Source: Escherichia phage Turkey5. Taken from it: 64,000 bases of DNA. Every line of letters begins with the position of its first letter. Within the stretch, counting starts at the first letter, position 1. Where the stretch lies: the sequence record PQ471516.1. The stretch is one strand, 5' to 3'. The position numbers and the translations under genes are program-made. Under the pieces are notes generated by a model, which was not told the DNA's origin, did not search any database, and saw only the letters and a list, made by a program, of their open reading frames with translations. Shown one piece after another: positions 39,344 to 42,133 of this stretch.

Positions 39344-42133
39344 ATGTTAAACAACAACATTGATAATATTATACAACTCATATATGGACACCATAAATTT
39401 CTTGAAAGAAACACTGGTGATACTATTGACCCTACGGTACAGCACTATGCTATCAACGATCAGGGTGTATTAGCAAACAACCGTCACTTCATTAACCACT
39501 CCGCGATGGAAGGTCAACCAAATGGTGATGGAACAACAGAAGGTCAAAGTGTTCTTATTCTTGGTTACATTTATGCTTATCTTGCAACAAACGATGATTT
39601 GTTTCTAGAAAAAGCAAAATGGTACTGGGATGCATATCATCAGTACTTCTACAATGGTAGAGAATTTCCTGATCCTCCTACGCCATTACAATGCAACTGG
39701 ATTGTGAACGCCAAAGAACCAATTCTTGCGAACTGGCCTTTAGCTGACGATGGCTGGCCTACTCATGGTGGCTTTAAAGGTATTGAGTTCCCTTTCGTTA
39801 ATGGTCTGTGTAAAGTTCCTCACGATGCACCATATTACGGTCAATTTCTTGATAAGGTAACATTTGCATTTAAAGGTGCATTAGCATGGAACCAAATCAA
39901 CGCATCAGTGAAAGCATTACTACCAGATGGTAGTACTGATTGGGATAACCCAGGTGAGCAGTATGATGTGGACTGGGTAATTGATTACTTAGGTCGTAAG
40001 ATTGACTGGGACGGTAACATTCTAGCTGAAGGTTTTGATGAATCAGAGAAAGGCACTGTACAGCTAAAAGATACAACTATTAATGGAACATATAAACTGA
40101 ACTTTGCAAACAGACAACCTGTTGAATACGGTGGTGTTTATATTGAACGTAACCAAATGCAACATAACCGCCCATTGCACGTTCCAATTAGTTTAGAATT
40201 TGCTGATAACGCGAGTGATGCTGAATTATGGTTCAGTGATGCTTCTTACTTGTTATATAAAATAACAAAAGAAAGAAAACATTATCTTGGTTGGAAATGT
40301 TCACTACTTACTTGTTATGCATACGGTGATATTGATGCAAGAGATAAATTCTTCCGTCAAAGTACTTTAGTTACTACTCCTTATACTGATGGTATTTCTT
40401 ATGAGTATTTCTATCCTAGTACTGCAATCGCTGAATTTGGTAGAAACTCACTTGGTTATATAACTATTAAGCAATTGGAAAGTGCACAAAGTACACTTGA
40501 GCAACAGGCTATCTGGTTCAGATTGAATACTTCTTCCAGCTTAGTTGTAGATTACGGTGGTGTTTGTGTTGATGGAAAACCATTATCATTTAAACCAGTA
40601 CTGGAATTATCAAAAACTAAAAATGACCACGATGTTGTACGTTACCGTTGTGGCTTACCAGAAAGTACTAATAGAGATATTAAGCATTCTGTTACTCCGC
40701 TAAGTGCATTTGTTCGTGAGAAAAAAGATGATGGTTCATCTTACATTATTGCTGATAGCAGAATCGTAGTTCCTTACGGTGATGGTACTTCTGAAATGCA
40801 ATACAGTACTGATATTCTTGTTACTCGTCGTGACACTATTAACCAATTAGTTTGTGGTGAAGATGATGGTGCAGTTATTGGTTTCTGGTTACTTGATTCC
40901 GGTAAATCTGAAGTGAAAGCTTTTACTTATCGTTCATATGAAGATGATTTTAACATCCGTATCGTTGATGATAATGGATGGCGTTGGTGGTGGATGATTC
41001 CTGCAACCCACGGTGAATGGAGTACAATAGAATTAACTGCTGATACTTTACATTTATCTGGATGGCAACCAAATCACCCTGATGATCCAGATCCTGCTGC
41101 TCCGGTATATACTGAATTAGAAGATATTACCATTCTTCCTGACACCACTCCTGTAAATGGAGTTGCAGTACTGGATTGGTATTGTTTAAACGAGCTACCA
41201 GAACTGTACAACAACGAAGATGGTGATGATTACACAATGGCATTCGCCATTACAATTGCTGGTGAGAGTGCTTATACGGCTCTTTTAGGGGATTGCGTAA
41301 TCAAAGATTATTTGCTAAACTCATTACATTATACACCAGGAACTATCCCGTTCTCTAACATTACCGACCCATATGCGAGTCAGTACTCTGGATGGCGTGG
41401 ATTACCATATCCTGGATACCAATCACCAGTGATTTATTGTTTTGAAGATGTAGCAGTTGATTATACACGTCTTGGAAATATGGTTGATTTCATGAAAGAT
41501 TCCCAAGAATGGTTTACTGCACAATTCGGTACTGTTGGTCCTTGTGCTCAAGCATATGTATGGAACCGTTGGGATAACCTGAAATATGGTGAACCAGATA
41601 CGTTTACTATGTTACACTGGGGTGATCAAGCGTGGAGTGGTTATGAGCCTCGTGCATTCTTTGGTGCATGTAGAGCATGGCAAGAACTCCATGACCGTGG
41701 TGCAGAAGTTCCTCAAACAATTATTGATTTCTGTGAGAACTGGATTCATTTCTTGATTAAGTTTCAGAAAGACAATGATGGTCGTTCTCCGACTATATTC
41801 AACAAAGATGGTACAGTTGAAGGTCCAGATTGGGACTTCACCGGACATATGTGTGGATTGTGGTTGGCTGGTGCATGTTGTGCTGGGCTGGCTGGATGTA
41901 CCATTGAGGGATTAGATGAACTCGCTGATGGTTTAGTACTGGAACTCCAGAACAACTATGTGGTAGTTTCTCCTGGCTCTGTTATGAACGGTTCATGGAG
42001 TCCGGGTGTTCGTGAAGGTACTGATAATGGTATGTTCTTCGGATTCTGGGCTGGTGAGATTATGCGTGGTTTAGGATTGTACTCACTTTACCGTCTTAAC
42101 ACACCTAACCGTTATGCTGCATTTCCTGGTTGA
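39344..42133 (+). CDS. large Trp/Gly/Asp-rich protein, possibly fiber-associated or enzymatic
   Basis: 929 aa ORF immediately after fiber-like gene; WRWWWMIP and Cys cluster MCGLWLAGACCAGLAGC; no motif recognised. Confidence 0.5.
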   Translation: MLNNNIDNIIQLIYGHHKFLERNTGDTIDPTVQHYAINDQGVLANNRHFINHSAMEGQPNGDGTTEGQSVLILGYIYAYLATNDDLFLEKAKWYWDAYHQYFYNGREFPDPPTPLQCNWIVNAKEPILANWPLADDGWPTHGGFKGIEFPFVNGLCKVPHDAPYYGQFLDKVTFAFKGALAWNQINASVKALLPDGSTDWDNPGEQYDVDWVIDYLGRKIDWDGNILAEGFDESEKGTVQLKDTTINGTYKLNFANRQPVEYGGVYIERNQMQHNRPLHVPISLEFADNASDAELWFSDASYLLYKITKERKHYLGWKCSLLTCYAYGDIDARDKFFRQSTLVTTPYTDGISYEYFYPSTAIAEFGRNSLGYITIKQLESAQSTLEQQAIWFRLNTSSSLVVDYGGVCVDGKPLSFKPVLELSKTKNDHDVVRYRCGLPESTNRDIKHSVTPLSAFVREKKDDGSSYIIADSRIVVPYGDGTSEMQYSTDILVTRRDTINQLVCGEDDGAVIGFWLLDSGKSEVKAFTYRSYEDDFNIRIVDDNGWRWWWMIPATHGEWSTIELTADTLHLSGWQPNHPDDPDPAAPVYTELEDITILPDTTPVNGVAVLDWYCLNELPELYNNEDGDDYTMAFAITIAGESAYTALLGDCVIKDYLLNSLHYTPGTIPFSNITDPYASQYSGWRGLPYPGYQSPVIYCFEDVAVDYTRLGNMVDFMKDSQEWFTAQFGTVGPCAQAYVWNRWDNLKYGEPDTFTMLHWGDQAWSGYEPRAFFGACRAWQELHDRGAEVPQTIIDFCENWIHFLIKFQKDNDGRSPTIFNKDGTVEGPDWDFTGHMCGLWLAGACCAGLAGCTIEGLDELADGLVLELQNNYVVVSPGSVMNGSWSPGVREGTDNGMFFGFWAGEIMRGLGLYSLYRLNTPNRYAAFPG

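Follow-up and report, generated by a model that had tools for sequence, protein, structure and literature searches.

We describe a gene of Escherichia phage Turkey5 (sequence record PQ471516.1) whose product we believe, with a probability of roughly 0.6, to be a predicted glycosidase that is docked on the tail and would cut a conserved glycan of the cell surface, and not a classical capsule depolymerase. The gene lies at positions 39344..42133 (+ strand, ATG start, stop codon included) of the 64,000-nucleotide (nt) stretch analyzed here, which we call the window and within which all positions are numbered. It encodes 929 amino acids (aa) and is a new ortholog in a known, functionally uncharacterized family of phage tail proteins. 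Taken by itself, the gene is one more ortholog of a protein already annotated as belonging to the tail, and its interest lies in findings made at the family level: a predicted split six-hairpin barrel resembling glycoside hydrolase family 8 (GH8), named candidate catalytic residues, and a tether that is always present, in the form of an adaptor domain or of a fusion to a tail protein. The last of these is our main new result: in every one of 74 loci surveyed, the putative enzyme module is tethered, either to a conserved partner domain or by fusion to a baseplate protein.

Residues 2-924 match PHROG 2871 ("tail protein") with an hmmscan E-value of 0 and 1447.7 bits, and we found 238 homologs in a large protein collection and 530 phage records by tblastn; on these matches, the open reading frame (ORF) is therefore a true gene rather than a chance frame. 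An earlier note, made from the letters alone, had described an ORF of unusual composition at this place, rich in Trp, Gly, Asp and Tyr, and the ORF listing of the window and a composition count agree with it: the protein contains 32 Trp (3.44%) and 17 Cys (1.83%), with 8.6% Gly, 8.4% Asp and 5.7% Tyr. The two segments singled out in that note, WRWWWMIP and MCGLWLAGACCAGLAGC, correspond to residues 546-553 and 836-852, respectively.

The closest deposited phage is vB_EcoM_JNE01 (JNE01), with 91% nucleotide and 96% amino acid identity for this gene, so that the window represents a new isolate or variant. In 121Q, PBECO4, phAPEC6 and other Asteriusvirus jumbo phages, these values are about 80% and 87%. 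JNE01, 121Q and phAPEC6 also share a common gene order: nucleotidyltransferase, small ORF, fiber-like gene, 929-aa gene, acyl carrier protein (ACP)-like gene, spanins and HNH endonuclease. By sequence and gene order, the window is that of an Asteriusvirus-type (121Q-like) jumbo myophage, and its 929-aa gene is orthologous to 121Q gp509, phAPEC6 gp314c and phi92 gp141. The phAPEC6 protein (105.34 kDa) was identified in purified virions by electrospray ionization tandem mass spectrometry, with 8 unique peptides and 13% coverage, and its authors place it among putative tail fiber proteins (PMC7247149). Detection of the ortholog in phAPEC6 particles supports a tail protein of the virion in Turkey5 as well. 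The virion association suspected from the letters alone is thus supported, as it is by the relatives, which either stand behind an adaptor gene or are covalently joined to a protein of the baseplate or tail tip. In SunLIRen (MH426725), ST-3 (MN604407) and MM7 (NC_041978), which are Erwinia/Salmonella phages of about 85 kb, the match is broken into three pieces that extend over three annotated genes and about 4.7 kb, a case of either fragmentation or inserted sequence.

A small fiber-like gene precedes the 929-aa gene, as already stated in the earlier note; its product matches the tail fiber family PHROG 32568 (E 5e-80). Its stop codon (TAA, 39340-39342) is separated by a single base from the ATG at 39344. 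This spacing, together with an AGGAG sequence in the end of the upstream gene, suggests translational coupling of the two genes. We aligned the upstream product, hereafter the partner, with phi92 gp140, ISAO8 gp38, a 560-aa protein of an Enterobacter prophage and 121Q gp508. Twelve residues are invariant within the last 60 columns, the N-termini are unrelated, and the C-terminal domain is conserved over myo-, podo- and sipho-type contexts. A hidden Markov model of this domain, which spans about 100 aa and is matched by no Pfam model, was then scanned over 80 IMG/VR loci encoding enzyme relatives, 74 of them with enough upstream sequence. In 65 of the 74, the domain is found at the very end of the ORF directly upstream, at most 65 nt from the enzyme match; in the remaining nine, the enzyme follows in frame behind a baseplate wedge protein of about 185 aa resembling P2 gpI (Pfam PF09684).

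The N-terminal parts of the partners hold known virion anchors of several types. In ISAO8 gp38, from a T7-like podovirus, we observed the T7 tail-fiber N-terminal domain (PF03906), in one IMG/VR locus (L012) the Tail_spike_N domain (PF18668), and in the Enterobacter prophage a domain resembling the lambda tail tube, with a score of 24.9 bits that stays below the Pfam cut-off of 26.1. Distant relatives of the enzyme carry N-terminal fusions to lambda gpM-like or Collar domains, and some of them C-terminal immunoglobulin-like or other virion domains. Furthermore, a profile search of 1.84 billion representatives returned 386 clusters related to the 929-aa protein: among 15 sampled clusters, none contains a glycoside hydrolase domain, and all have either domains of phage-tail or virion type or no domain. 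With its partner gene, the window thus holds what we define here as an adaptor-docked tail enzyme cassette, that is, a putative enzyme module accompanied by an adaptor or fused to a tail protein. The partner would be the adaptor: its variable N-terminus may plug into the tail, and its C-terminal domain may dock the enzyme.

Two observations concern the partner itself. The Enterobacter protein, from a siphovirus-type prophage (locus L004, positions 8319-9998; Logan DRR334939), contains internal repeats of the type 'LTGNITLVAADISDVYSQT' and, at its C-terminus, the putative docking domain, and this partner/enzyme pair lies between head-completion genes and the tape-measure region, an unusual site for a tail enzyme. 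In the window, a conserved 42-aa ORF overlaps the adaptor gene; it is shorter than the length cut-off of the ORF listing and was found by translation. Its phAPEC6 ortholog gp315c (4.66 kDa) was detected in virions at 69% coverage (PMC7247149). The frames of this ORF and of the adaptor differ by +1, and inspection of the sequence revealed no slippery site for a programmed frameshift between them. The small ORF may encode a separate, tiny virion protein, or a +1 shift may fuse it with the adaptor.

We modeled the 929-aa protein with AlphaFold2, using an alignment of 49 homologs, and obtained a mean predicted local distance difference test (pLDDT) score of 89.6 and a predicted template modeling (TM) score of 0.83. 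The model displays eleven long helices (residues 2-22, 65-82, 85-102, 293-308, 311-328, 707-728, 767-785, 791-810, 834-849, 857-870 and 900-917), which are interrupted twice by regions that are all-beta (residues ~119-275 and 346-659). From it we predict a six-hairpin, glycoside hydrolase-like (alpha/alpha)6 barrel built from three separated parts of the chain. A fold comparison for the barrel names YteR, GH88, cellobiose 2-epimerases, GH48 and others. Whole-chain Foldseek matches to the Protein Data Bank (PDB) are weak because the barrel is split into three separated pieces; the beta part matches a tandem carbohydrate-binding module (CBM) of family CBM22 (4xup, E ~1e-4), vicilin-type double jelly rolls and PNGase F. 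A viral structure library contains one full-length look-alike (TM score 0.92, 38% identity), and several divergent 'tail fiber' proteins also match, with 13-20% identity.

The WRWWW strand belongs to the second beta region, where residues 478-620 match PHROG 23426, and the sub-domain that holds it occurs alone in other tail proteins. Close homologs all retain D542, W546 and W548, and most of the distant ones do so too. In its simplest reading, this region would serve to bind carbohydrate, and D542 may also reach into the cleft. The Cys cluster highlighted in the earlier note is indeed present at residues 836-852 (nt 41849-41899), largely within helix 834-849, a helix rich in Gly, Ala and Cys. 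A conserved function for its cysteines did not hold up: many homologs have S, T, A or M at positions 837, 845, 846 and 852, which rules out a metal or disulfide site. The segment is therefore better described as a tightly packed, probably inner barrel helix made of small residues.

Two motifs look like those of GH8. By eye, TTEGQS (residues 64-69) resembles TSEGQS of E. coli BcsZ, and NASDAE (289-294) resembles SASDGD of the same enzyme. In BcsZ, Glu55 is the catalytic acid and Asp116 the Asp of SASDGD; the GH8 signature reads A-[ST]-D-[AG]-D. An hhalign comparison of the barrel with BcsZ covers 270-315 columns and pairs E66 with E55 and D292 with D116. The likeness to the S/T-E-G-Q acid motif holds at the level of the motif; in ASDAE, which contains D292, the fifth position is E rather than D and the remainder of the signature is unlike that of GH8.

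Residue conservation provides stronger evidence for an enzyme than the comparison with BcsZ. E66 (at least 90% conserved) and D292 are present in all 49 close homologs. We also aligned 27 full-length distant relatives, of 20-35% identity, in which E66 is kept in 23 and D292 in 25. Other residues retained in this set are Q68 (24/27), W296 (23/27), D542 (24/27), Y692 (24/27), Q721 (27/27), D744 (22/27), W764 (23/27), R770 (23/27) and E905 (21/27). Seven conserved residues fall in the last part of the barrel: Y692, Q721, D744 (codon 41573-41575), W764, R770, H835 and E905. In six-hairpin enzymes, the catalytic residues lie where the inner barrel helices begin. The secondary structure of the model puts E66 and D292 in just such places, at the start of helix 65-82 and of helix 293-308, both of which would be inner barrel helices. 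D744 and D542 are conserved alternative candidates for the general base. We read the protein as GH8-like in mechanism and not demonstrably a member of GH8. A table in a review lists phi92 gp141 as a predicted glycosidase (PMC5380687).

What the enzyme might cut is suggested by its distribution. Phages and prophages of many Gram-negative genera, among them Escherichia, Enterobacter, Pseudomonas, Stenotrophomonas, Shewanella and Gluconobacter, encode relatives with about 50% identity over the full length (930 aa), and relatives with 30-45% identity are found in phages of Vibrio, Aeromonas, Yersinia and Campylobacter. Compared with 121Q, the enzyme is better conserved than the adaptor (87% versus 69% identity). 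Such identity across many Gram-negative genera, in an enzyme that changes less than its adaptor, indicates that the target is likely a conserved surface or matrix glycan. In the same vein, the BASEL study considered that conserved glycan-hydrolyzing tail-fiber genes of rV5- and phi92-like phages probably aim at conserved glycans (PMC8594841). Cellulose, phosphoethanolamine-cellulose, poly-N-acetylglucosamine or an element of the lipopolysaccharide core may be put forward as guesses.

We may then hypothesize the following mechanism. The enzyme would not attach to the virion by itself: the small fiber-like protein upstream would provide a phage-specific N-terminal anchor and a C-terminal dock of about 100 aa for it, a link that other phages replace by direct fusion of the enzyme module to a protein of the baseplate or tail tip. 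Held at the periphery of the tail, the protein would most likely bind, through its beta-sandwich domains, a surface polysaccharide conserved among Gram-negative hosts and then cut it by a GH8-like inverting mechanism. E66 would serve as the general acid and D292 would hold the sugar at the -1 position, with D744, or else D542, as candidate for the base.

Several results weigh against a tail-docked glycosidase. Pfam has no match for either the full protein or barrel-only constructs stripped of the beta inserts (E<=10), and NCBIfam has none for the protein. The GH8 model PF01270 matches neither the protein nor the barrel constructs, which leaves it outside the family in this respect. Among PDB sequences, phmmer and the 49-homolog profile found nothing significant, the profile giving a non-significant match to a GH76 helix hairpin (E 0.11). 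The alignment of the barrel profile with GH8 is not significant either, whether against BcsZ as a single sequence (E 0.13) or against a BcsZ profile (P 0.039), the latter being shallow and made of BcsZ relatives of at least 60% identity alone. The presumed gathering of E66, D292, D744 and D542 in one cleft is deduced from secondary structure, and the putative contact between partner and enzyme from synteny. A search of the accessible literature returned no biochemical study of any member of the PHROG 2871-type family, and phi92 gp141 is placed nowhere in the phi92 cryo-electron microscopy maps of 2026, where one fiber is unassigned (PMC13450770).

The protein may instead be a non-catalytic receptor-binding or structural tail protein, in which the barrel and beta-sandwiches bind a conserved glycan in the manner of a lectin or act as a scaffold at the baseplate periphery. 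We consider this rather unlikely. Such a role would agree with the lack of a significant sequence match to catalytic families, with phage annotations that read just 'tail protein' or 'tail fiber', and with the few distant relatives in which E66 or D292 is missing. In the podovirus ISAO8, furthermore, the interval from the genes of internal virion proteins to the holin gene has gp38 and the enzyme as its sole annotated tail-fiber or tail-protein genes, which fits receptor binding. However, E66, D292, D744 and the GH8-like TEGQ motif are kept down to about 20% identity, and this is better explained by catalysis than by binding alone. The two functions are not mutually exclusive, since tailspikes may both bind and cleave.

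The same scaffold could also support another chemistry, that of a polysaccharide lyase, an unsaturated-uronyl hydrolase (GH88/GH105-like) or a sugar epimerase or isomerase (AGE-like), some of which appear among the fold matches of the barrel. We judge this improbable: the best fold match is GH8, the aligned motifs TTEGQS and ASDAE are of GH8 type, and an epimerase would have no obvious role on a virion. Finally, a classical serotype-specific capsule or O-antigen depolymerase tailspike, as one form of the depolymerase suggested in the earlier note, is highly improbable: although the protein is tail-associated and carbohydrate-active-like, and the loci of relatives hold true depolymerases such as the phi92 endosialidase gp143 and colanidase gp150, the model contains neither a trimeric right-handed parallel beta-helix catalytic domain nor a trimerization module, its identity of about 50% between phages of unrelated hosts is the opposite of the rapid divergence of serotype-specific depolymerases, and the conserved-glycan target advanced in the BASEL study also speaks against it. 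What survives of that suggestion is a virion-associated, carbohydrate-active enzyme, in keeping with the six-hairpin glycosidase-like fold of the model and with the proteomics of the ortholog.

Returning to the tail-docked glycosidase, a bolder form may be entertained, toward which we remain more doubtful than convinced. The PHROG 2871-type proteins may constitute a distinct, biochemically undescribed glycoside hydrolase family with a GH8-like acid motif, a split barrel and CBM-like inserts of its own, which would cut a host-conserved glycan from the tails of phages of many Gram-negative hosts and be plugged into myo-, sipho- and podovirus tails by a universal dock of about 100 aa. If true, this would make the family a portable 'enzyme-on-adaptor' module.

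Coordinates of the features discussed here are listed in Table 1. The earlier note had placed the 929-aa gene before a spanin pair and drawn from this position an argument for a virion enzyme. The spanin pair is real, an ACP-like gene stands in between, and adjacency to spanins counts as no evidence in this matter. The C-terminal half of the intervening product is acyl-carrier-protein-like, with scores below NCBIfam cut-offs, and its phAPEC6 ortholog is annotated as an ACP. Directly after the spanins, at the same place as in 121Q and phAPEC6, is an HNH endonuclease gene (43327-43920, +; PHROG 23285, E 9.5e-89). On the other side, an RlaP-type nucleotidyltransferase gene (37372-38625, +; Pfam PF10127, E 9e-16; PHROG 388) is found amid virion-protein genes. 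It is separated from the tail cassette by an inverted repeat with no T-run after it, which may be an upstream boundary of the cassette or a regulatory hairpin. Farther upstream, a 908-aa gene (32214..34940; PHROG 3573, function unknown) possibly corresponds to phAPEC6 gp323c, a 98.6-kDa protein present in virions of that phage.

The 3' end of the 929-aa gene overlaps a promoter-terminator element. That the stop codon lies inside a promoter immediately followed by a terminator had been noticed from the letters, and both elements were located: the TGA (42131-42133) sits within the -35 hexamer of a promoter that is one of just two exact matches to TTGACA-16-TATAAT in 64 kb, and the hairpin that follows, with its T-run, has a free energy of -15.4 kcal/mol (z = -5.2). 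The window shares the two hexamers and the hairpin with JNE01, 121Q and phAPEC6, with one compensatory change, a T-A pair replaced by A-T at the outer end of the stem. A start site about 7 nt past the -10 box would land within the 5' arm of the hairpin. Transcripts coming in from the tail genes would then be able to fold into the terminator, unlike those started at this promoter, which would read through. This arrangement suggests that the element may act as an insulator between the late cassette and the ACP-like and spanin genes that follow it.

Table 1. Features of the tail enzyme cassette and its surroundings in the window
Feature	Position	Strand	Description
Inverted repeat	38630..38674	none	17-nt arms, 94% complementary, 11-nt loop (repeat search)
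42-aa small ORF	38715..38843	+	starts MSRKLYADLQTSGVIKF; overlaps adaptor gene; ortholog of 121Q gp507 and phAPEC6 gp315c
Putative adaptor (partner) gene	38791..39342	+	183 aa from the ATG set by the JNE01 annotation; longest ORF starts at 38731
Conserved C-terminal domain of adaptor	~39028..39339	+	~100 aa; N-terminal part variable
Shine-Dalgarno AGGAG	39331..39335	+	in the last codons of the adaptor gene; serves the 929-aa gene
Predicted barrel segment 1	39344..39697	+	aa 1-118; helices 2-22, 65-82, 85-102; TTEGQS with E66 (codon 39539-39541)
Predicted beta insert 1	39698..40168	+	aa 119-275; all-beta in model secondary structure
Predicted barrel segment 2	40169..40378	+	aa 276-345; helices 293-308, 311-328; NASDAE with D292 (codon 40217-40219)
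Predicted central beta-sandwich	40379..41320	+	aa 346-659; jelly-roll, CBM-like; WRWWW aa 546-550, nt 40979-40993
Predicted barrel segment 3	41321..42130	+	aa 660-929; helices 707-728, 767-785, 791-810, 834-849, 857-870, 900-917
Sigma-70-type promoter	42130..42157	+	TTGACA-16 nt-TATAAT, extended -10 TG; 12/12 match
Intrinsic terminator	42155..42190	+	13-bp stem, 3-nt loop, seven-T run; overlaps the -10 box by three bases
ACP-like gene	42192..42596	+	134 aa, between 929-aa gene and spanins; PHROG 18343 and PHROG 5934
i-spanin	42640..43014		N-terminal membrane helix
o-spanin	43011..43316		lipobox LFAG|C

At least 530 sequenced phages encode members of the family, among them rV5-, phi92-, PVP-SE1- and SPN3US-like phages and Autographiviridae, which are used or proposed for therapy; the family has neither a Pfam or NCBIfam model nor a solved structure. 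The barrel type, the docking domain or fusion and the candidate residues could help to assign the unassigned fiber of phi92 and gp141. The same findings point to a conserved host glycan for broad-host-range phages, and the anchor-plus-enzyme pair may be a portable unit for phage engineering.

Nothing essential sets the 929-aa protein apart from the tail proteins of the PHROG 2871 family. Full-length amino acid identity is 87% with 121Q gp509, about 55% with phi92 gp141 and PVP-SE1 gp50, and about 45% with ISAO8 gp39; in 121Q, phAPEC6, phi92, PVP-SE1 and ISAO8 alike, a small fiber-like gene is found upstream. The distance to GH8 enzymes (clan GH-M) is much larger: identity to E. coli BcsZ and C. 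perfringens CPF_2247 (PDB 3ren) is about 10%, the predicted barrel is split by some 470 residues of beta domains, and the protein is tethered to a virion instead of being secreted.

With the classical tailspikes, such as the P22 tailspike protein, the phi92 colanidase gp150 and the K1F endosialidase, the protein shares a place in the virion, an origin in tail-fiber loci and a predicted orientation toward carbohydrates. Those spikes are trimeric beta-helices or beta-propellers whose specificity diverges fast, whereas here we predict an alpha-barrel with beta-sandwiches that is strongly conserved between hosts. The closest parallel to the cassette is offered by adaptor-plus-tailspike systems. 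In K1-5/SP6-like phages, with their T7 gp17-type N-terminal domain, and in CBA120, with its tailspike anchors, a short tail-binding protein likewise carries a separately encoded carbohydrate-active protein. Here, however, the putative docking element is a distinct, conserved C-terminal domain of about 100 aa, and the cargo is predicted to be a globular six-hairpin protein instead of a trimeric beta-helix spike.

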